IMG/VR virus record: IMGVR_UViG_3300044961_000667
From: a virus
Taxonomy: Duplodnaviria > Caudoviricetes
Length of the DNA stretch: 64,000 nt
Direction: 5' to 3' (one strand)
Below are positions 38,339-47,066 of this stretch, piece by piece. The number at the start of each line of letters is the position of its first letter. Within the stretch, counting starts at the first letter, position 1. Under the pieces are notes generated by a model. The model worked only from the letters and a program-made list of their open reading frames with translations. It was not told the origin of the DNA and did no database searches. A program made the translations under genes and the position numbers.

Positions 38339-38427
38339 CGGAGCGGGTCCGAGTCGAACGGACAGCCCGCCTTTCGACGAGCAAGCGCTTTCGAGACGCT
38401 CTGACTTGCCTGTGTGCAAACCGCTCC
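38339..38427 (-). tRNA. tRNA-Ser(CGA)
   Basis: Cloverleaf with long variable arm. Confidence 0.88.
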
Positions 38428-38523
38428 AGAAACACCCTCAGATGACCGCCTGAGGGGCGCGGGGGCCTGTTGGCCGAGATGCCCCTAGCTGTCGCCAGTT
38501 CGTGAGCGTCTCGGGACGGCTTG

Positions 38524-38610
38524 CGGAAGACGGAGGACTCGAACCCCACACCCACTCGGGGTGCCGACCGCTTTCAAGGCGGGCCAGCGTCCATCACTGG
38601 TTCATCTTCC
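38524..38610 (-). tRNA. tRNA-Ser(TGA)
   Basis: Cloverleaf with long variable arm. Confidence 0.9.
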
Positions 38611-38611
38611 A

Positions 38612-38941
38612 TCACTGCGATCGCGGCTGATCGGCGTTCCAGACGGAGCGGCCCATCGCTCCCTCATCGGCCTCAGCGTTCTTCAACATCGAGTAGTAGT
38701 CCGGTCGCTCCTTCAGGTGCGCCCAGGCGATCTTCCCGATGTCGAGCAGGTCGTCAACCACGTCGGTCTCCGGGTCGACGTCATGCTCCGACTCAACCCC
38801 GAGACCGGCCGCGAACTCTCCGAGGTCGACCTGGCTCCAGTCGATCCCCAGCTGGTCGCCAACCCACTTCGCCAGCTCAGGGCTCCATGCCGGCGCCTCG
38901 CCGACCTCTTCCTTCAGCTGCCTGACGAGCTTCCTGAGCAT
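38612..38941 (-). CDS. DUF5661-like protein
   Basis: GLGVESEH...KIAWAHLKERPDYYSMLK. Confidence 0.75.
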   Translation of the reverse strand: MLRKLVRQLKEEVGEAPAWSPELAKWVGDQLGIDWSQVDLGEFAAGLGVESEHDVDPETDVVDDLLDIGKIAWAHLKERPDYYSMLKNAEADEGAMGRSVWNADQPRSQ

Positions 38942-38981
38942 GCGGTGGCCTCCGGGCGCACAGTACACCCAGAGGCCACCC

Positions 38982-39524
38982 TCAGTCTTCCAGCTCGGTG
39001 TTCCAGTACGCCACCGAGGCGAGCCACTGCTTCCACGGCTCGGGCATGCCCTTCTTCCAGGTGAAGGTGAGCCGCACCGACTCGGGCAACGACTTCGGCT
39101 TCACCGGCACCTGCAGGAGCTTCATGCCTGCCTGCGCTGGCGTCCGACCGCCCTTCTTCTGGTTGCAGGGCGTGCACGACACCACGATGTTCTCCCACGT
39201 CGTGTGGCCGCCCTGCGTGCGCGGGACGACGTGGTCGTACGTGAAGTCGTGCCTGGGCACCTTCGCCGAGCAGTACTGGCACTTGCCCTTGTCTCGCGTG
39301 AAGACGTTCTCGCGACTGAACTTGATCGCCTTCTTCTTGCCGCGGATCGCCCGGAGGAACCGGATCACCGACGGCACCTTGAACTCCAACGTCATCGAGC
39401 GGACGGTCTTGTCCTCGTACTCCTCGACGACTTCCACCTTCTCCTCCCAGAGGAGGGTGATCGCCCGTTGCCAGCTCACGCGGGCAACCGGGGTGTAGCC
39501 AACATCGAGCACCAGCGTTTCCAC
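38982..39524 (-). CDS. HNH endonuclease (McrA-like)
   Basis: FSRENVFTRD..KCQYC...TYDHVVPR..GG.T.WENIV.SC..CN.KK. Confidence 0.9.
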   Translation of the reverse strand: METLVLDVGYTPVARVSWQRAITLLWEEKVEVVEEYEDKTVRSMTLEFKVPSVIRFLRAIRGKKKAIKFSRENVFTRDKGKCQYCSAKVPRHDFTYDHVVPRTQGGHTTWENIVVSCTPCNQKKGGRTPAQAGMKLLQVPVKPKSLPESVRLTFTWKKGMPEPWKQWLASVAYWNTELED

Positions 39525-39562
39525 GTTGCCCGTCCTTTCTGCGGCCTTCGCCGCGGTGAGTG

Positions 39563-39647
39563 TAGTCCCGGCCGGACTCGAACCGGCACGGCCTTTGTGG
39601 CCACTGGGGTTTGAGCCCAGCGCGTCTACCGACTCCGCCACGGGACC
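39563..39647 (-). tRNA. tRNA-Leu(CAA)
   Basis: Cloverleaf. Confidence 0.9.
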
Positions 39648-39652
39648 ATCTG

Positions 39653-39741
39653 TGCTCGGGGCGAGACTCGAACTCGCATGAGGCTTTCGCCCCACCGGCT
39701 TCTGAGGCCGGCGTGTCTACCGAAGGTTCCACCACCCGAGC
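39653..39741 (-). tRNA. tRNA-Leu(CAG)
   Basis: Cloverleaf. Confidence 0.9.
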
Positions 39742-39752
39742 ATGCACTTCAG

Positions 39753-39839
39753 TGGTCCGGGCGAGAGTCGAACTCGCATGATCTTTCGATCGGCAGGCTC
39801 TCAACCTGCTGTGTCTACCGGAGGTTCCACCACCGGACC
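39753..39839 (-). tRNA. tRNA-Leu(GAG)
   Basis: Cloverleaf. Confidence 0.9.
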
Positions 39840-39843
39840 AAAG

Positions 39844-39916
39844 TACCCGCTCTCGGAATCGAACCGAGCCCTCCGCCTTGTGAAAACGGCGCTCTCACCA
39901 GTTGAGCTACGCGGGC
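39844..39916 (-). tRNA. tRNA-Val(CAC)
   Basis: Cloverleaf. Confidence 0.88.
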
Positions 39917-39919
39917 ATG

Positions 39920-39991
39920 TCGTGAGCCTGGGAGTCGAACCCAGCTGGGCGGATTATGAGACCGCTGCCTTCCCTCGATGGCTTGCTCACG
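39920..39991 (-). tRNA. tRNA(CAT), Met or Ile2
   Basis: Loop CTCATAA. Confidence 0.8.
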
Positions 39992-39994
39992 GAG

Positions 39995-40067
39995 TAGCAG
40001 GGGCTGGGATCGAACCAGCGTTCTCCAGGTTATGAGCCTGGCGAGATGACCTCTTCTCCACCCTGCA
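39995..40067 (-). tRNA. tRNA-fMet(CAT)
   Basis: 1:72 mismatch; loop CTCATAA. Confidence 0.85.
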
Positions 40068-40068
40068 G

Positions 40069-40142
40069 TACTCCCGGAGGGACTCGAACCCCCAGCCTCT
40101 TCGTTCGTAGCGAAGCGATCTGATCCGTTGATCTACGGGAGC
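40069..40142 (-). tRNA. tRNA-Arg(ACG)
   Basis: Cloverleaf. Confidence 0.9.
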
Positions 40143-40154
40143 ATCAAACAACAG

Positions 40155-40228
40155 CGGTCTCGGCGGGACTCGAACCCGCGGCCTTTCGCTTCGGAGGCGA
40201 ACGCTCTCATCCACTGAGCTACGAGACC
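40155..40228 (-). tRNA. tRNA-Arg(CCG)
   Basis: Cloverleaf. Confidence 0.9.
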
Positions 40229-40230
40229 AG

Positions 40231-40303
40231 CGTTCCCGGAGGGACTCGAACCCCCGACTTCTCCGTTAGGACCGGAGCACTCTTCCAACTGAGCTACGGG
40301 AAC
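40231..40303 (-). tRNA. tRNA-Arg(CCT)
   Basis: Cloverleaf. Confidence 0.88.
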
Positions 40304-40309
40304 ATCCTG

Positions 40310-40380
<71 letters not shown>

Positions 40381-40779
40381 TCAACCAACCACGTACTTCT
40401 CAGCCAACTTCACACCGGACTTCTGACCGTTCTTGGCAGGCTCGACCCGAAGCTGCCCGCCAACGGCCCCAACCTCCTCGACCGGGACCAGATACACCGC
40501 ATCCAACTCTGGGCAGTGGACGCCGAAGAACTCGACCTCACCGCGGTACGACTTTCTCCCAGTCCCTCGGTGAGCCGAGTTGCTGCTGGTGTCGAAGACA
40601 ACCGCTCCATTCTTGAGCCGCCCAGTCTTGCACTGCACTCGCTGGAACCCGGCATCAGTGTCGATCACCAGGTCGTAGCGCTGGTTCTCTCCAATCGGGA
40701 GCAGCACCGTCCTCCCGGTCTTGAGCAACGCCGCCATCACCGCACCCTCTGTTCTCGTCCCCTGCGCCTTGGTGTTCAT
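40381..40779 (-). CDS. PD-(D/E)XK endonuclease (PDDEXK_5-like)
   Basis: G...E...P.GENQRYDLVID...RVQCKT. Confidence 0.88.
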   Translation of the reverse strand: MNTKAQGTRTEGAVMAALLKTGRTVLLPIGENQRYDLVIDTDAGFQRVQCKTGRLKNGAVVFDTSSNSAHRGTGRKSYRGEVEFFGVHCPELDAVYLVPVEEVGAVGGQLRVEPAKNGQKSGVKLAEKYVVG

Positions 40780-40795
40780 GCTCCACATCTACCAC

Positions 40796-40841
40796 ACCGC
40801 TCGGACACCAGCCGAGTGCTCTGCCTTCGAGCTGCGGGGGC
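40796..40841 (-). pseudogene. 5' fragment of tRNA-Thr(GGT)
   Basis: GCCCCCGCAGCTCGAAGGCAGAGCACTCGG-CTGGTGT-CCGAG; no T-arm. Confidence 0.7.
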
Positions 40842-40845
40842 GCTG

Positions 40846-40918
40846 TGGATCTGGCCGGACTCGAACCGGCAACCTTCTGCGTGCAAAGCAGCCGCTCTCC
40901 CATTGGAGCTACAGACCC
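40846..40918 (-). tRNA. tRNA-Ala(TGC)
   Basis: G3:U70. Confidence 0.92.
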
Positions 40919-40923
40919 TTCAG

Positions 40924-40996
40924 TGGAACCGGCGGGACTTGAACCCGCCACCTCTCGCATGCGAAGCGAGCGCTCTCCCAGATGAGCTACGGCCCC
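40924..40996 (-). tRNA. tRNA-Ala(CGC)
   Basis: Cloverleaf. Confidence 0.92.
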
Positions 40997-41001
40997 AGGT
41001 G

Positions 41002-41072
41002 TGCGCGAGCAGGGAGTCGAACCCTGTCGTCTCCCGCGTCGGGGGAGTGCTCTACCGGTGAGCTACACGCGC
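41002..41072 (-). tRNA. tRNA-Val(GAC)
   Basis: Cloverleaf; atypical loop CCGACGC. Confidence 0.8.
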
Positions 41073-41161
41073 ATGGGCAGGCGGTGCTTTCGCCGAGCTG
41101 CCAGCAGTCACCACGTTCGTGACCCCGGCCCTGCTCGGTAGACTGCCACCTCTCCTGCTTG

Positions 41162-41234
41162 TGGACCCGGCGGGGATCGAACCCGCTACCTCTCGCATGC
41201 CATGCGAGCGCTCTCCCAAGTGAGCTACAGGCCC
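41162..41234 (-). tRNA. tRNA-Ala(GGC)
   Basis: Cloverleaf. Confidence 0.92.
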
Positions 41235-41326
41235 TAAGCGAGGCAGTTCGTAACGCTGCCTGCCCGGCTTTCCACCGGCGCGGGTTGATCAGACCCACGA
41301 GACTTGCCCGGAGCGACCGGGCCATG

Positions 41327-41399
41327 TGCCGTCCCTCGGAATCGAACCGAGATCCTCCGCTCTTCAGGCGGGTGCATGGACCACCACTGCCAAGACGGC
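41327..41399 (-). tRNA. tRNA-Phe(GAA)
   Basis: Cloverleaf. Confidence 0.85.
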
Positions 41400-41408
41400 G
41401 TACTTCAG

Positions 41409-41480
41409 CGGACCCGAACGGAATCGAACCGTCCTCGCCGGCGTGACAGGCCGGTCGCCTCACCAGATGCGTACGGATCC
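41409..41480 (-). tRNA. tRNA-Asp(GTC)
   Basis: Cloverleaf. Confidence 0.9.
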
Positions 41481-41485
41481 AACAG

Positions 41486-41568
41486 GGCGACTGGAGAGAA
41501 TCGAACTCTCACTGAGCTTTCGCTCGCGGGGTCACAACCCGCTGGGAACCCATTTCCCATCAGCCGCC
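41486..41568 (-). tRNA. tRNA-His(GTG) with a long variable arm
   Basis: G-1:C73; variable hairpin GAGC-GAAA-GCTC. Confidence 0.85.
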
Positions 41569-41697
41569 AGAAGAAATCTGCTCCACCCGAGTGAGGAAGG
41601 CATGAAACGGGTTTGAACCGTCTGGTCGATTTAGCAGATCGACTGATCACCAAGATCAGTAGTGCGTGTGAGCCATCCTCGGCCGGGTGGTGCAGAG

Positions 41698-41769
41698 TCC
41701 GCCGCAGTGGAATCGAACCACTTGCCTCTCGCTTATCAGGCGAGTGCTCTTCCAGTGAGCTACCGGCGG
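41698..41769 (-). tRNA. tRNA-Ile(GAT)
   Basis: Cloverleaf. Confidence 0.85.
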
Positions 41770-41778
41770 GCACGTCAG

Positions 41779-41852
41779 TCAGGGTGGCTGGGATCGAACC
41801 AGCGACCTCCTGCATCCGAAGCAGGCGCGCTACCAGGCTGCGCTACACCCTG
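41779..41852 (-). tRNA. tRNA-Pro(CGG)
   Basis: Cloverleaf. Confidence 0.92.
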
Positions 41853-41862
41853 TTGAGTCAAG

Positions 41863-41899
41863 TCAGGTCGGCTGGGATCGAACCAGCGATCTCCTGCAT
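41863..41899 (-). pseudogene. 3' half of a split tRNA-Pro
   Basis: ATGCAGGAGATCGCTGGTTCGATCCCAGCCGACCTGA; acceptor CGACCTG pairs 7/7 with CAGGTCG at 42446-42452. Confidence 0.8.
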
Positions 41900-42327
41900 C
41901 ACCAGACGTGGTCACTGGCCAGCAGGATGTTCTTCTTGGCCCCATTCGCGGGGGCCTCCAATCTCACATGCAGGATCGACTTCCCCTGGAACTCCTCAGG
42001 CAGGAAGGCCGTCACCACGTCCATCTCAGGCAGATACACCAGAAGCAGGTCAACCTCCCCGACCTCATACTTCTTGAACGACTTGTTGCTCGGTCCCACC
42101 CACGTCCTCAGAGCCACAGTCGCCACGCCGGACGAATGAGACGACTTGCCGCCTCCATACTTCGCTTGGGCCCGGATCAACCTAACACCATCATCCAGAA
42201 CCAGATCGTACCTGGCATCGGTTGTGGGCCGACTGACGACAAACCCCTTCTCAATCGCCCTCTGCTGCGCCTTCAGCGATGCCACTTCACCCTTCTGCCT
42301 GGTGTCCACTTCTCTTGCGTACCACAC
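41899..42327 (-). CDS. PD-(D/E)XK endonuclease (PDDEXK_5-like)
   Basis: KG...GF.VS.P..DARYDLVLD...AQAKY; lower GC. Confidence 0.88.
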   Translation of the reverse strand: MWYAREVDTRQKGEVASLKAQQRAIEKGFVVSRPTTDARYDLVLDDGVRLIRAQAKYGGGKSSHSSGVATVALRTWVGPSNKSFKKYEVGEVDLLLVYLPEMDVVTAFLPEEFQGKSILHVRLEAPANGAKKNILLASDHVW

Positions 42328-42340
42328 AGGAGAACATCTG

Positions 42341-42412
42341 TCGAAGAGACTGGACTCGAACCAGCATCCTCACGGCCCCCAGCCGTGCGCTCCACCATTG
42401 AGCTACTCCTCG
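42341..42412 (-). tRNA. tRNA-Pro(GGG), intact copy inside the insertion
   Basis: CACGG-CTGGGGG-CCGTG; acceptor CGAGGAG/CTCTTCG. Confidence 0.88.
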
Positions 42413-42417
42413 TCACG

Positions 42418-42452
42418 CCCGAGCAGGCGCGGTACCACTCCGCTACGACCTG
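42418..42452 (-). pseudogene. 5' half of the split tRNA-Pro
   Basis: CAGGTCGTAGCGGAGTGGTACCGCGCCTGCTCGGG. Confidence 0.8.
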
Positions 42453-42456
42453 AAAG

Positions 42457-42528
42457 TCTGGAAGGCGGGGATCGAACCCGCGACCTCTCGCGTCCAAGGC
42501 GAGCGCCCTACCGCTGGACTACTTCCAG
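42457..42528 (-). tRNA. tRNA-Pro(TGG)
   Basis: Cloverleaf. Confidence 0.9.
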
Positions 42529-42530
42529 TT

Positions 42531-42545
42531 GTGCAATCGATTGCG
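42531..42545. repeat. GTGCAATCGATTGCG palindrome copy
   Basis: Exact 15-mer, 2 nt before tRNA-Pro(TGG). Confidence 0.8.
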
Positions 42546-42712
42546 TTCAAAACTGTGCAGTGCGGACTGGCGGTTTGCACCCGCTGCACCGCATTGTCGG
42601 CCTGGCCTCAATAGGCCGCACGGTCCCACGCCGTCGAACGCCAGGACCTGCACCAACCACCGCCATGTTCGACCTGCCAAGCGGTGCCCGTTCATGCCGG
42701 GATGCTGCACAG

Positions 42713-42784
42713 TACCCCGTACGAGAATCGAACTCGTTTCGCTCGCTTGAAGGGCGAGGGGCCTAACCAATGGCCGAACGGGGC
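42713..42784 (-). tRNA. tRNA-Glu(TTC)
   Basis: Cloverleaf; first 22 nt overlap the HNH ORF end. Confidence 0.88.
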
Positions 42785-43119
42785 TTCTCTGCTCGATCAT
42801 GCGTCCTCTGCCGATGACAGTTGGCGCAGACCACTTCACATTTCTCGATCTCGGCTACGACCTTCTCAGGTCCGACACCGTGCCTCTTGAACTGCCCCAG
42901 GCTGAACTCCTTCCGACCCCTGACGTGATCAAAGTCCATCACCCATGGCGGATAGGCGACACCGCAGTCCGCGCACGGCCTGGACTTGGCTTTGTCGATG
43001 ATCGCCTTGATCGTCTCTTTGTAGGCCGCTGCCGCTCTGATGTACGAGATCTTGTTCTTCTCGTAGTGCCTGCGGCTGTACTCGGCCTGCTTCGACTTCG
43101 ACGGCTCTCTGAGCGGCAT
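42763..43119 (-). CDS. HNH endonuclease
   Basis: PCADCG...MDFDHV...KCEVVCANCHRQRT; same family as 36452-36979. Confidence 0.88.
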   Translation of the reverse strand: MPLREPSKSKQAEYSRRHYEKNKISYIRAAAAYKETIKAIIDKAKSRPCADCGVAYPPWVMDFDHVRGRKEFSLGQFKRHGVGPEKVVAEIEKCEVVCANCHRQRTHDRAEKPRSAIG

Positions 43120-43152
43120 TCTTCGTCATACCACTTGACGAACCTTTCGTCA

Positions 43153-43198
43153 CTCCACCTTGAAAGGGTGTCGGCCTCACCTGAAGCACCAACGGGGC
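43153..43198 (-). pseudogene. 5' fragment of tRNA-Glu(TTC)
   Basis: GCCCCGT...CACC-CTTTCAA-GGTG; no T-arm. Confidence 0.65.
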
Positions 43199-43203
43199 TG
43201 AAG

Positions 43204-43274
43204 TACCGCGTACGGGTGTCGAACCCGTCTCACTGGGCTGAGAACCCAGGGACCTCCCGGAAGTCGAACGCGGC
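43204..43274 (-). tRNA. tRNA-Glu(CTC)
   Basis: Cloverleaf. Confidence 0.88.
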
Positions 43275-43280
43275 TTGAAG

Positions 43281-43353
43281 AGGCGGAGGCGGGAGTCGAA
43301 CCCGCTCGATGTCGGTTTTGCAGACCGATGCCTTCCCAGTTGGCTACTCCGCC
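43281..43353 (-). tRNA. tRNA-Cys(GCA)
   Basis: Cloverleaf, U73. Confidence 0.9.
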
Positions 43354-43375
43354 AGGGAAAGACGAGACTGTGCAC

Positions 43376-43732
43376 ATGAAGCGCGTGCTGTGCCTTGATG
43401 ACGACGACATGGTGGCCCGGCTCATCGCCGAGGTGGTCGAGTTCTGCGGACACGAGCCCGTTCGAGAGAGCGACCCGCTGAAGGCTTCCTCGGACCACCT
43501 CCACGACCGGAAGATCGCTGCGGTGCTCACCGACTACATGATGCCTCGCCTCGATGGCGTCGACGTTCTGGTGGTCTGGCAGGAGTCTCGACCCGAGGTG
43601 CGCCGAGTGCTGATCACCGCGGCCCCGAACGAGCCGGCGGTGAAAGAGGCCCTCCGCACCGGCGTCGCTCAGATGGTGATCGCTAAGCCTCCGACGATCG
43701 CCGACATCAAGATGGCCCTGGCCTGGCTCTGA
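43376..43732 (+). CDS. Single-domain response regulator receiver
   Basis: LDDD, TDYMMP (phospho-Asp), LIT, AKP. Confidence 0.9.
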   Translation: MKRVLCLDDDDMVARLIAEVVEFCGHEPVRESDPLKASSDHLHDRKIAAVLTDYMMPRLDGVDVLVVWQESRPEVRRVLITAAPNEPAVKEALRTGVAQMVIAKPPTIADIKMALAWL

Positions 43733-43733
43733 G

Positions 43734-44297
43734 CTACCGCTTCTTCCTCGCCAGTCGCTCCTCCAGCTGCTGAACCGACATCTGGATGGAGTCGTTGATC
43801 GACCGCATCATGTCCTGCCGGAGCTTGTACTCCAGCTCCTGCAGCTTCTTGTCGGAGGCGTCCTTCGACTCCTTCTCGCGCTGGCGGTAGTACTCACCCT
43901 GTTTCTCGATGCGCTGGTCCACCGCCTGCCGGATCTCCGAGACCGTTCCCTTCATGGCCTCGATGGCCGACAGCACCTGCTTCATCTCGGTCTGAACGTT
44001 GCCGACCGACTTGTCGATACCGGCCAGGGCGTCGCTCTGCTCGTCGAACTTGTCGTCGTGCTCGTCGAGCCGCTCTTCGGTCTTCTGCTTGTCCTTGTCC
44101 TCGCGGTCGACCGTCCGCGAGCCCAGCCACTTGACGAAGCCAACGACGGCTCCGATCAACTGGGTGACGACTGCTGCTCCGACCAGCAAGTACAGCCCGG
44201 TCAGCCCGTCACCTGCTGGCGCTGGCGGTGGGGTTGCTGCTGCGGCTCCTGCCGCCGCCGCCGCCGCCGGGCCCGCCGCCAAGATCAACAGGTTCAA
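43734..44297 (-). CDS. Single-TM coiled-coil protein (possibly lysis-related)
   Basis: One hydrophobic helix, then a coiled coil. Confidence 0.6.
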   Translation of the reverse strand: MNLLILAAGPAAAAAAGAAAATPPPAPAGDGLTGLYLLVGAAVVTQLIGAVVGFVKWLGSRTVDREDKDKQKTEERLDEHDDKFDEQSDALAGIDKSVGNVQTEMKQVLSAIEAMKGTVSEIRQAVDQRIEKQGEYYRQREKESKDASDKKLQELEYKLRQDMMRSINDSIQMSVQQLEERLARKKR

Positions 44298-44300
44298 GAA

Positions 44301-44657
44301 CTACTCCTTGCTCGACAGATCGTCGTCGTCGTCGGGCTCTTCAGAGGGCACCGCCGACACCGGAGTCGCTGGCGGGAGGTTCACCTGCAGCTTGGCCGCA
44401 ATGGCGTCCACCACCTTCGACGTGTGCCGGCTTTCCATCTGCATCGACATCATCAGCTTCTCGCCTCGGAGCGTGCGCTCGTCGACATGCTTCACGGCGG
44501 TCTTCAGTGCCGCCAGGTCCTCGCCGAAGCCGGCCATTTTGGACCTCATCTCGTGCATGTCCTCTTCGAGCTTTGCCACTCGCGAGGCCAGGCTGATGGC
44601 CGTCGGCTTCCGCTTTCTTGGGGCCGTACGGAGGCCCCTCCCTCTGGTGTCACGCAA
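44301..44657 (-). CDS. Coiled-coil hypothetical protein
   Basis: Heptads. Confidence 0.55.
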   Translation of the reverse strand: MRDTRGRGLRTAPRKRKPTAISLASRVAKLEEDMHEMRSKMAGFGEDLAALKTAVKHVDERTLRGEKLMMSMQMESRHTSKVVDAIAAKLQVNLPPATPVSAVPSEEPDDDDDLSSKE

Positions 44658-44768
44658 AGTCGCTCTCCGAAGAAGCGGTCCACGGTCGTGGTTCTCTCAC
44701 GGCCTGCTGTTGGTTGACTGCTCCATCTTTCGCCCTCTTCTGGGCATCCGTCAACTGTCACTGATGCG

Positions 44769-44839
44769 TACCCTCTCGGAATCGAACCGAGCACCGTCGG
44801 CTTAACAGGCCGCTGCTATCAACCAGACCAGCTCAGGGC
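44769..44839 (-). tRNA. tRNA-Asn(GTT), imperfect acceptor
   Basis: Loop CTGTTAA; good T-arm. Confidence 0.7.
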
Positions 44840-44847
44840 ACATCGTA

Positions 44848-44918
44848 CTGGGGAGGAAGGGATCGAACCTTCTCCGTCGGCTTCAGAGACCGCTGCGCTA
44901 CCCTTGCGCCACTCCCCA
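44848..44918 (-). tRNA. tRNA-Gln(CTG)
   Basis: Cloverleaf. Confidence 0.9.
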
Positions 44919-44930
44919 ATGTCTTTCGCT

Positions 44931-44996
44931 CAGGGGCCCTGGGAATCGAACCCAGCTCGTCGGCTTCAAAGGCCGACTCACTCCCTGAGTACCCCT
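44931..44996 (-). tRNA. tRNA-Gln(TTG), short D region
   Basis: TCGGC-CTTTGAA-GCCGA. Confidence 0.72.
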
Positions 44997-45001
44997 CCAT
45001 G

Positions 45002-45073
45002 AGCGGGTGGCGAGGATCGAACTCGCGCATCCTGGGTTGGAAGCCCAGAGCCTTTCCGCTTGGCTACACCCGC
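45002..45073 (-). tRNA. tRNA-Gly(TCC)
   Basis: Cloverleaf. Confidence 0.9.
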
Positions 45074-45076
45074 ATG

Positions 45077-45147
45077 TACCGCCGCTGGGGATCGAACCCA
45101 GTCCCTCCGCTTAAAAGGCGGTTGCTCTACCCTTGAGCTACGACGGC
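45077..45147 (-). tRNA. tRNA-Lys(TTT)
   Basis: Cloverleaf. Confidence 0.9.
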
Positions 45148-45186
45148 GCGTGGACCTGCGCCGTCGCGTTTCATCTTCGTCTTCAT
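45127..45186 (-). CDS. Mini-ORF MKTKMKRDGAGPRAVVAQG running into tRNA-Lys
   Basis: AAGGAG RBS; three Lys codons in the first six. Confidence 0.45.
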   Translation of the reverse strand: MKTKMKRDGAGPRAVVAQG

Positions 45187-45204
45187 CGTCGTCTCCTTGT
45201 CGAG

Positions 45205-45292
45205 TGGTGGGAAGGCTCGGAGTCGAGCCGAGCTGGGACGCAATGCCACCCGCTTTACAGGCGGGCCACGAGCCCTACGTGTCTACCTTCCC
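45205..45292 (-). tRNA. tRNA-Tyr(GTA), CCA encoded
   Basis: Cloverleaf with long variable arm. Confidence 0.88.
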
Positions 45293-45295
45293 ATG

Positions 45296-45366
45296 AGCGG
45301 CATCCGGGAATCGAACCCGGTTCAGTGGCCTGGCAGACCACGGCCCAACCAATAGACCAATGCCGC
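45296..45366 (-). tRNA. tRNA-Gly(GCC)
   Basis: Cloverleaf. Confidence 0.9.
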
Positions 45367-45448
45367 ATACGGCTTTGTCGCTGACGGCCGCGCAGATCCT
45401 CGTGCGGAATGCACGAAGGACTGAACGTCTGCCGGCGACAGAAGCCAG

Positions 45449-45519
45449 TGGGCCCTGAGGGGATCGAACCCTCTCCTGACGCTTAAGAGGCGCCTGCTCT
45501 ACCCTTGAGCTAAGGACCC
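45449..45519 (-). tRNA. tRNA-Lys(CTT)
   Basis: Cloverleaf. Confidence 0.9.
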
Positions 45520-45570
45520 AGATTCGGCCAGCCCGACTAGACGTCAGACAGGTGGCCGAACTGTCGCTGC

Positions 45571-45589
45571 TATCCAGTTTTCAGAGAAC
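45571..45589 (-). promoter_or_regulatory. rrn boxA-like element
   Basis: GTTCTCTGAAAACTGGATA resembles rRNA-operon GTTCTTTGAAAACTGAATA. Confidence 0.5.
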
Positions 45590-45599
45590 AGAACTGCGA

Positions 45600-45673
45600 A
45601 GCACCAGGTCGGGCTCGAACCGACGACCTGCGGTTTACGAAACCGCTGCTGCTACCTGCTGAGCTACTGGTGC
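45600..45673 (-). tRNA. tRNA-Thr(CGT)
   Basis: Cloverleaf. Confidence 0.88.
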
Positions 45674-45677
45674 ACTG

Positions 45678-45751
45678 CACGGCGAGCAGGAGTCGAACCT
45701 GCAGCGTCGGGTTTTGGAGGCCCGTTCCCTTCCCGTTGGGGACTTCGCCGT
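45678..45751 (-). tRNA. tRNA-Trp(CCA)
   Basis: Loop CTCCAAA. Confidence 0.85.
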
Positions 45752-45812
45752 ATACCGTTGTTCCTTTCCTTTTGACGAAACATCCTCTCGAAGACTGACC
45801 TGCGGTGGTGCA

Positions 45813-45852
45813 GAAAAGCGAAAGGCCGGGACCCTTTTGGGGTGCCCGGCCT
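45813..45852 (-). terminator. Intrinsic terminator upstream of the tRNA array
   Basis: AGGCCGGG-C-ACCC-CAAAA-GGGT-CCCGGCCT followed by TTCGCTTTT. Confidence 0.75.
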
Positions 45853-45879
45853 CCGTGAGCGATCCAATGTGCTACTGGA

Positions 45880-46050
45880 TCAGGTTCTCATGGAGCCGGG
45901 CCGTCGGTGGTCGCTGGTACCCAGATTCTGCTCGGGCTGATAGGCGACCACGCTTTCGACGGACCAAAGGCACGAACGCAAAAACGCCGGTCGAGCGGCC
46001 ATGGCCGCCCCGGCGATTCGCTTCGTCAGCGCTTTGGTTGAGGTCGACAT
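45880..46050 (-). CDS. Putative leader peptide (56 aa)
   Basis: Between promoter and terminator; last codons complementary to the terminator 5' arm. Confidence 0.5.
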   Translation of the reverse strand: MSTSTKALTKRIAGAAMAARPAFLRSCLWSVESVVAYQPEQNLGTSDHRRPGSMRT

Positions 46051-46078
46051 CGAAAGCACGTGCTCCTTGATGTCCAGC

Positions 46079-46108
46079 AGAGTACCCACCTGACGAATTC
46101 GCCGTCAA
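46079..46108 (-). promoter_or_regulatory. Sigma70-like promoter of the tRNA leader
   Basis: TTGACG-N18-TACTCT. Confidence 0.55.
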
Positions 46109-46130
46109 GCACCTGACGACGATTCTTCGA

Positions 46131-47066
46131 TCAGTACCAGCCCGCGGGGTTCAACGTCGGGTTGTTCTCGAACGGGTACTGCTCACCGCCACCCTCGTCG
46201 TCATCCTGCCAACCAGGAGCGCCCTGTTCCATCTCCGGGTCGGACTCGATGCTTCGACGAACTTCCTTCTCCATGAAGTCGGCGATCACCGCCATCATCG
46301 CCTCGTCGTCTTCAGCTCCCTGCATCGCGCTCACGAGCGAGCCCTCGTCCGAGTCGGCCTCGACCAGCATCTGGCCGTGGAGCTGGAACGCCTCGACGAA
46401 GTCGATCTTCTTCAGGAAGCTCTGCCACGCATCCCTCGCGTAGTCGGCGACCTTCTCCTTGAACTTGCCGGTGCCGATGTCTCGACCGCGGTAGAAACCC
46501 TTGAGAAAGGTCCTCGCGATCGACTTCGCGATTCCTCCGGCCACGTCGGAGACCTTCTTCTTCTCCTCGGGAGACGGCTTCTTCCCGGCCGCCGCCCCCT
46601 TGAGCGCCTTGGTCGCTTCCTTGGCTGCTTCGGGATTCTTGGCGACAGCCTTGGCAGCGGCCTTCTTCGCGCGGCCCTTGCCCTTCGCGACCTTCGCCTG
46701 ACCAGGGGCTTTCTTCGGGGCCGGCGCCTCGGCATCACCCTTCGGCTTGTCGACCTTGGTGGCCGGCTGCCCCTTCGGCTTCTTCGCGGAACCACCCTTC
46801 TCGGGCACCTTCTCCCAGTCGCCCTCCTTCGTCTTGACGAAGGTGCCCGCCTTGCGCTTCCGCTTCTCACCCGGCTTGGCGACGTTGGTGCCCTGGCCCT
46901 TGCCGGCGGCAGTCTTCGCCACCGACGGCTTGCCCACCGCGGTTCCACCCTTCTTCTGCAGCTGCGAGATCGGGATGAGCACCGGAGACGTCTTCACGTC
47001 GCGCGGGTACGGGCCCTTCTCAACGAGGGAACGCATCTGCTCCACGAGTGAAGAGAGGCTGCTCAC
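46131..47066 (-). CDS. Lys/Ala-rich protein, possibly head-internal
   Basis: SLVEQMRSLVEK leader; basic low-complexity middle; acidic tail. Confidence 0.65.
   Translation of the reverse strand: MSSLSSLVEQMRSLVEKGPYPRDVKTSPVLIPISQLQKKGGTAVGKPSVAKTAAGKGQGTNVAKPGEKRKRKAGTFVKTKEGDWEKVPEKGGSAKKPKGQPATKVDKPKGDAEAPAPKKAPGQAKVAKGKGRAKKAAAKAVAKNPEAAKEATKALKGAAAGKKPSPEEKKKVSDVAGGIAKSIARTFLKGFYRGRDIGTGKFKEKVADYARDAWQSFLKKIDFVEAFQLHGQMLVEADSDEGSLVSAMQGAEDDEAMMAVIADFMEKEVRRSIESDPEMEQGAPGWQDDDEGGGEQYPFENNPTLNPAGWY

Follow-up and report, generated by a model that had tools for sequence, protein, structure and literature searches.

A probable homing-endonuclease cassette splits a phage tRNA-Pro(GGG) gene and carries a second tRNA-Pro with the same anticodon

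What interrupts the proline tRNA gene of this phage? In the window, by which we mean the whole stretch of 64,000 nucleotides that was analysed, a resident tRNA-Pro(GGG) gene is broken in its anticodon loop by an insert that encodes a small nuclease together with a complete second tRNA-Pro, and near-identical phages carry the same gene unbroken. We consider it highly probable that the insert is a free-standing, intron-less homing-endonuclease cassette that is aimed at a tRNA gene, destroys this target and supplies a replacement tRNA. The features that enter into this reading are the following:

41863-41899, minus strand: 3′ half of the resident tRNA-Pro(GGG), covering positions 37-73 and matching without a difference the corresponding part of the unbroken gene in contig L011 (L011:1641-1713)
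42418-42452, minus strand: 5′ half of the resident tRNA-Pro(GGG), covering positions 1 to ~36 and having the same sequence as L011:1641-1675 in the unbroken gene
41900-42417, minus strand: 518-bp mobile cassette, consisting of a 5-nt spacer, the spare tRNA, a 30-nt spacer and the nuclease ORF minus the last base of its stop codon; skipped exactly in contigs of sequencing runs X5, X7, X8 and X11 and absent from contigs L011 and L016
42340-42412, minus strand: spare tRNA-Pro(GGG), called by ARAGORN, 61.2 bits on the Rfam tRNA model
41899-42309, minus strand: PD-(D/E)XK homing-endonuclease gene of the I-Ssp6803I family, 136 aa, with a PF11645 match and a match to 2OST by sequence and fold
41807-41828, minus strand: anticodon arm of the neighbouring tRNA-Pro(CGG) (gene 41778-41852), with two mismatches to the presumed nuclease target, both in the loop
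40339-40799, minus strand: second PF11645 cassette (ORF 40381-40788, PF11645 E 3.3e-37), whose 461 nt are skipped in contigs of X5, X7 and X8

The split gene and its unbroken allele

When the two halves are joined (42452-42418, 35 nt, followed by 41899-41863, 37 nt), ARAGORN recognises a 72-nt cloverleaf of tRNA-Pro(GGG) whose four stems are all perfect (acceptor 7/7, D 4/4, anticodon 5/5, T 5/5). A preliminary description, made from the sequence alone, had proposed this very cloverleaf from the 7/7 acceptor stem and the loop TCGGGAT, and both are found as described. The joined molecule carries C1:G72 and A73, which are marks of bacterial tRNA-Pro, and an orphan T-arm is detected at 41887, inside the 3′ half. 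The resident gene is a close paralogue (85% identical) of the next gene, tRNA-Pro(CGG). Its loop has C33 instead of the usual U33, a feature that is genuine in the intact allele (L011:1641-1713); C33 also occurs in the tRNA-Pro(GGG) of an unrelated IMG/VR phage array (L019:2984-3058, loop TCGGGGA). We also joined all pairs of break points by brute force and found that ARAGORN accepts nearly any join, with the anticodon shifting along with it. The halves by themselves therefore cannot fix the anticodon, which was settled only by the empty-site alleles.

A run search located the window, whole or in part, in 20 runs from 15 studies. Four of these runs (X5, X7, X8 and X11), which between them represent a bioreactor, wastewater, soil and an RNA library (X8), were compared over positions 39800-43600. 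All four hold a contig that links 41899 straight to 42418 and thereby omits exactly 518 nt, with an ambiguity of 1 nt; the empty-site contig from X7 is 123,753 nt long and shows 0-4 differences per aligned piece. Further contigs were retrieved through the neighbouring HNH protein. In two of these, L011 and L016, an unbroken tRNA-Pro(GGG) lies between tRNA-Pro(TGG) and tRNA-Pro(CGG), with flanks that are 98-99% identical to the window, and this unbroken gene equals the joined halves letter for letter and scores 62.7 bits on the Rfam tRNA model. The preliminary description had suggested both a tRNA model run on the joined sequence and a look for the empty site in relatives. Both now speak for its proposal, with an unbroken tRNA at the predicted join in at least six independent data sets of near-identical phages. 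Likewise, the length of 518 bp and the two borders are confirmed independently by the empty-site contigs, to within the 1 ambiguous nt.

The cassette allele is present in the window, in contig L010, in contig L013, where it is 100% identical over 596 nt, and in one contig of X5 (577 nt), and X5 holds both alleles, the one with the cassette and the empty one. Three further contigs (L012, L014 and L015) terminate exactly at the insertion point, as is expected for assemblies at a polymorphic bubble. Beyond the 1 ambiguous nt, there is no target-site duplication at the cassette borders. The undamaged halves, the exact borders and the missing target duplication are consistent with a recent insertion by break repair but not with transposition or decay. 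Searches of IMG/VR for close relatives via the nuclease protein alone, the joined-tRNA junction or a conserved noncoding RNA beside tRNA-Ile retrieved none, a scan of JGI metagenomes for the exact joined junction gave no match, and a response-regulator gene used as query yielded 1-kb contigs only.

What does the cassette bring along? Beyond the ORF and the spare tRNA, it comprises just 35 nt of sequence. The spare tRNA-Pro(GGG) is well formed, with a canonical loop (CTGGGGG), C1:G72, A73 and a canonical U33, and comparison with the companion tRNAs in the distant arrays L001 and L002, as well as with a tRNA-Pro(GGG) from L019, shows a conserved cloverleaf in which 13 of 21 pairs covary. That the insert holds an intact tRNA-Pro with the same anticodon had been noticed at the outset and stands. 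The accompanying statement that its sequence is unrelated to that of the resident gene was overstated: the two are 72% identical overall, a level that is ordinary background among tRNAs, though their anticodon arms are the same at 7 of 17 positions and differ at the other 10. A scan of 41600-42800 for promoters and terminators found none. As a candidate regulatory element, we considered a hairpin that would mask the ribosome-binding site of the nuclease gene. It is visible in L001 and L002 but scores no better than shuffled sequences there (z -1.75 and -0.58), it is absent as such from the window (z -0.06), and it was dropped as evidence.

The nuclease and its relatives

The insert had been described as encoding a PD-(D/E)XK nuclease, and Pfam, sequence and fold agree in assigning the protein to PF11645, the I-Ssp6803I family. 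The match to PF11645 (PDDEXK_5) scores 79.7 bits, well above the cut-off of 26.1 bits (E 2.7e-22), and covers 134 of 138 profile positions. By sequence, the protein matches 2OST, the structure of I-Ssp6803I, with an E value of 1e-4 at an identity of ~25%. An AF2 model of the nuclease (pLDDT 88, pTM 0.83) returned 2OST chains as the top four Foldseek matches (E 5e-8, TM 0.69-0.81, best match at TM 0.78-0.81, rmsd ~2.7 Å), with the next match following at E 3e-3. D35 (in RYDLV..D) and Q48-x-K50 are invariant in seven homologues and align with YDLV and Q-V-K of 2OST.

Since homologues begin with MDTRQK, we take the GTG at 42309 (136 aa) as the true start, rather than 42327 (142 aa). At its other end the ORF runs into the split tRNA, just as had been noticed in the sequence: the stop codon TGA (41901-41899) ends on an A that also serves as base 37 of the tRNA, with which the 3′ half begins. 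Neither the 142-aa ORF nor a further ORF at 38612-38968 gave a match in exact-protein look-ups. The two cassette alleles, that of the window and that of X5, differ at eight positions, all of which lie within the ORF; as seven of these differences are synonymous and a single one is non-synonymous and conservative (V83A), the ORF is under purifying selection.

Which sequence does the enzyme recognise? The presumed target arm (CCTGC-loop-GCAGG) is palindromic in its stem, and the cassette sits at the centre of this arm, in the anticodon (G35/G36-A37). From this insertion point, and by analogy to the one characterised relative, which is ~25% identical, we infer that the nuclease would cut the anticodon region of the intact tRNA-Pro(GGG) gene. 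In a search of the window that allowed up to 3 mismatches, the arm of tRNA-Pro(CGG) was the only near-cognate copy of the presumed target. With two mismatches between them, either the enzyme discriminates in a fine-grained manner, or the carrier risks cutting itself.

Homologues P0003 and P0002, which are 64-66% identical to the nuclease, reside in the distant syntenic arrays L001 and L002. There, the order of elements is the same as in the window, namely 5′ half, tRNA-Pro(GGG), nuclease, 3′ half, tRNA-Pro(CGG) and tRNA-Ile. Compared with those of the window, the halves of L001 have changed in a compensatory manner in each of the four stems, and both the acceptor stem (7/7) and the anticodon stem (5/5) of L001 are fully paired; in L002, the contig edge removes the acceptor strand of the 5′ half and the anticodon stem contains one mismatch. 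In neither array is the loop part of the 5′ half conserved, and no join of the halves of L001 or L002 yields an NGG anticodon. One reading that fits these sequences is that L001 and L002 represent separate invasions of diverged intact alleles that may have been followed by some decay. No empty sites were found for the L001 and L002 lineages, and the proteins encoded on either side in L001 lack homologues in the window, so there is no genome-wide divergence by which to date that cassette.

More broadly, all seven relatives of the nuclease from IMG/VR lie inside tRNA arrays, and in four of the seven a tRNA begins 5-21 nt past the stop codon. The same location is found for two relatives from cultured phages, gp106 of Streptomyces phage Forrest and gene 178 of Synechococcus phage Sf-FR1. 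The former (L017, MZ820093.1 69567-69962) is a 44% identical homologue positioned ~7-8 nt upstream of tRNA-Asp, and its annotation as 'endonuclease VII' is likely mistaken, its sequence marking it as a PF11645 nuclease homologue; the latter overlaps a tRNA. Local alignment upstream of ten other PF11645 genes revealed a clear stranded tRNA half in L006 only, where the 5′ half of a tRNA-Ala(CGC) lies ahead of the nuclease, marginal ones in L021 and L023, and none elsewhere.

A proposed route of spread and its alternatives

How might such a cassette spread? We propose that the process would begin with cassette-bearing and cassette-free phages infecting one cell. The nuclease would then recognise the anticodon-arm DNA of the intact resident tRNA-Pro(GGG) and cut in or beside the anticodon, at what is now the insertion point, and in this way the cassette's own enzyme would drive the insertion. 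Phage recombination-repair would subsequently copy the 518-bp cassette from the donor, with the tRNA halves and the neighbouring tRNA genes providing homology. As the recognition site would be split by the insertion, the new carrier would be immune, and as the insert would not be spliced out, the resident tRNA would be dead. This cost would be paid by the complete tRNA-Pro that is carried along: with the same anticodon on a different arm (7/17 identical), its gene should escape the nuclease and its product should take over as a functional tRNA. By analogy to SegB of phage T4, tRNA processing would likely cut the nuclease mRNA at its stop codon.

The surroundings of the cassette bear on this proposal. 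The minus-strand array extends over ~36.9-45.8 kb and contains 39 tRNA genes and a tmRNA (ARAGORN; Rfam); its examined part is interrupted by three small endonuclease genes, two of PF11645 (41899-42309 and 40381-40788) and one of the HNH type (42763-43119). The second PF11645 cassette brings a new stretch for the 5′ 42 nt of tRNA-Thr(GGT), with a different anticodon arm, and the old 5′ part is stranded at ~40800-40841; the rebuilt empty site again folds as tRNA-Thr(GGT). Both cassettes exchange the arm that is known to be the target of the family, the first by supplying a whole tRNA and the second by supplying half of one, which supports the logic of the mechanism.

Alternatively, the cassette could be mobile at the DNA level and yet spread by means other than its own nuclease, that is, by general recombination or by hitch-hiking on neighbouring endonucleases, with the nuclease excluding competitor phages, cutting host tRNA genes or decaying. 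We regard this as unlikely. The HNH gene (42763-43119) and the second PF11645 gene do lie within 2 kb and could cause co-conversion, and trans-homing is documented for T4 mobE and I-TevIII (PMC2790892). Cassettes 1 and 2 are, however, present or absent independently of each other (X5 has cassette 1 without cassette 2), and nuclease and tRNA-Pro(GGG) travel jointly into split tRNA-Pro genes in three diverged arrays. Similarly, there is no promoter-like site near the ORF and the activity of the nuclease is predicted from its sequence, but purifying selection acts on this ORF, its catalytic motif is kept, and the insertion point is central in the class of site that is cut by the characterised member of the family.

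Very improbable, in our view, is that the 518 nt form an intron or belong to a split-tRNA arrangement, such that the halves would be rejoined as RNA and the resident tRNA-Pro would be functional. The idea draws on the position in the anticodon loop, which is the site of bacterial group I tRNA introns, and on the related I-Ssp6803I being intron-borne (PMC1995217). Yet no group I or group II intron or any other family was detected in the insert at E<=10 (41840-42470), nor in 36000-46500 at E<=1, and the 35 nt outside the ORF and the spare tRNA leave no room for a ribozyme. The undamaged state of the halves, and the compensatory changes across both pieces in L001, would likewise be in line with an intron, whereas a spare tRNA with the same anticodon would then be redundant and the loop residues of the 5′ half are not conserved in L001 and L002. 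The joined form is also seen in a contig of the RNA library (X8), but it exists as DNA in three DNA runs and in the two contigs L011 and L016. The X8 contig spans several tRNAs together with their spacers, lacks cassette 2 and reads as the genome or the primary transcript of an empty-site phage; it has the same joint as the DNA runs and is hence uninformative on splicing or expression. As for a split or permuted tRNA of the archaeal type, an ORF and a tRNA directly adjoin the halves, the joined form occurs as DNA, and the tmRNA in the array points to a bacterial host; bacteria are without the bulge-helix-bulge splicing enzyme. The initial preference for a replacement insertion rather than an intron is thereby strengthened, given the empty sites, the two alleles in one sample and the lack of an intron model match.

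That a chimeric contig of two strains faked the split tRNA can practically be dismissed: the metagenomic origin of the data and the several short contigs that end at the insertion point would allow for it, but L010 and L013 yield the same assembly of the cassette, X5 yields it with 8 SNPs, the sequence is continuous over both junctions, and L001 and L002 show the same layout in unrelated samples.

Several further observations were made in and around the array. At tRNA-Met (39919-39991), relatives in X5 and X11 have ~460 extra letters at 39945-39950 that are absent from the window, which there seems to represent the unoccupied site of a further, similarly sized cassette. The last 22 nt of the HNH ORF (42763-43119, minus strand) overlap the 5′ end of tRNA-Glu(TTC) (42712-42784), and this ORF appears to be fixed rather than polymorphic, being present in all four runs. 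At 36452-36994 (minus strand), the end of an HNH ORF runs into a tRNA 3′ half, with an orphan T-arm at 36480. Another orphan T-arm (CTGGG-TTCGACT-CCTGG) follows the loop CTTCTAA at ~38060-38130 (minus strand), where a degenerate or D-arm-poor tRNA-Arg(TCT) may have been missed by ARAGORN. Between tRNA-Ile and tRNA-His lies an element of ~125 nt (41568-41696, minus strand) that is near-identical in L001:6604-6731 and absent in L002. It folds into a long terminal stem around two hairpins, includes a T-arm-like GACGG-TTCAAAC-CCGTT, has no Rfam match and might represent an RNA of the tRNA-like or Y-RNA-like type; next to the tRNA array of Streptomyces phage Forrest, a Ro-like protein is encoded. 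Near-identical relatives have ~100 extra nt between tRNA-His and tRNA-Asp (L011 ~2086-2190; X7 at window position 41484), and X7 has 89 other letters near tRNA-Arg, at window positions 40143-40158; the array thus contains additional small indels.

Implications and comparison with known systems

Homing endonucleases are thought to persist in essential genes by means of introns or inteins, or else to lie between genes. If our reading of the cassette is correct, it illustrates a third route that is available in an RNA gene, namely to break the target and bring a substitute. It would also provide a concrete mechanism for the gain, loss and swapping of tRNA genes in phage arrays, and it connects the intron-borne I-Ssp6803I with relatives that occupy a site of the same type as free-standing genes. 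In practical terms, stranded tRNA halves beside small nuclease ORFs represent a simple annotation signature, and with natural before and after alleles at hand, and with the target, a putatively resistant site and a near-cognate site all known, a ready-made test system is available.

As a tentative generalisation, phage PF11645 nucleases might form a clade that is specialised on tRNA anticodon arms and always brings a new whole or half tRNA, acting as a main engine of tRNA-array turnover. If true, this would explain the mosaic and fast-changing tRNA sets of large phages, as well as their stranded fragments and odd isoacceptor alleles, and it would mean that the PF11645 family lives in tRNA genes in two ways, by a self-splicing intron in cyanobacteria and by a spare gene in phages.

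A published count of stand-alone PDDEXK_5 genes covers jumbo phages but does not analyse the sites of these genes (PMC12880540). In the literature, of which our coverage is incomplete, we came across no endonuclease cassette described as splitting a phage tRNA gene while bringing a spare one, which amounts to absence of evidence only. The cassette behaves like a free-standing homing-endonuclease gene, in that its presence varies at a single site among genomes that are otherwise near-identical, its borders are exact and no target duplication accompanies it, and its ORF is not embedded in a self-splicing ribozyme as that of an intron-encoded enzyme would be.

The closest characterised relative, I-Ssp6803I, was the first PD-(D/E)XK homing endonuclease and binds as a tetramer to a 23-bp pseudo-palindromic site (PMC3384342). 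Its gene lies in a group I intron (655 nt) of the tRNA-fMet gene of Synechocystis PCC 6803 (PDB 2OST; PMC3384342, PMC1995217), and its target is the anticodon region of a tRNA gene. With this enzyme the phage nuclease shares PF11645, the fold (TM ~0.8), the D...Q-x-K motif, a similar size (136 versus 150 aa) and the placement of its gene inside the anticodon loop of a tRNA gene. In Synechocystis, however, the self-splicing intron restores the tRNA, whereas the phage cassette has no ribozyme, destroys the tRNA and carries a second, complete one. The setting differs as well, a cyanobacterial chromosome there and a phage tRNA array here, and the identity between the proteins is ~25%.

The nearest phage precedent is SegB of T4 and T6, a GIY-YIG enzyme whose free-standing gene lies in the tRNA cluster; it cleaves the tRNA genes of phages without SegB and spreads together with the adjacent tRNA genes (PMC2330249; PMC13096335). 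Its recognition site is the T-loop, which is conserved among many tRNA genes, and the end of its ORF abuts a tRNA whose processing cuts the mRNA at the stop codon (PMC2330249; PMC13096335). Both systems thus consist of a free-standing endonuclease gene that sits in a phage tRNA cluster with its end abutting a tRNA. SegB, in contrast, lies between genes and involves no split tRNA, while the present cassette resides inside its target and brings a same-anticodon substitute. The enzymes also belong to different classes (GIY-YIG versus PD-(D/E)XK), and the one presumably recognised here is a specific anticodon arm rather than the T-loop of many tRNAs.

In the case of T4 SegF and related seg and mob genes, the endonuclease gene adjoins a cleavage-resistant allele of its target, and break repair copies both into sensitive genomes (PMC13096335; PMC2988022). 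Co-conversion in those systems exchanges the sensitive allele without leaving a remnant, whereas here the old gene persists as two flanking halves. In fungal mitochondria, mobile endonuclease ORFs carry a diverged duplicate of the gene segment that they displace, and no splicing is needed. With those ORFs, part of a protein-coding gene is replaced in frame, whereas the phage cassette supplies a whole RNA gene.
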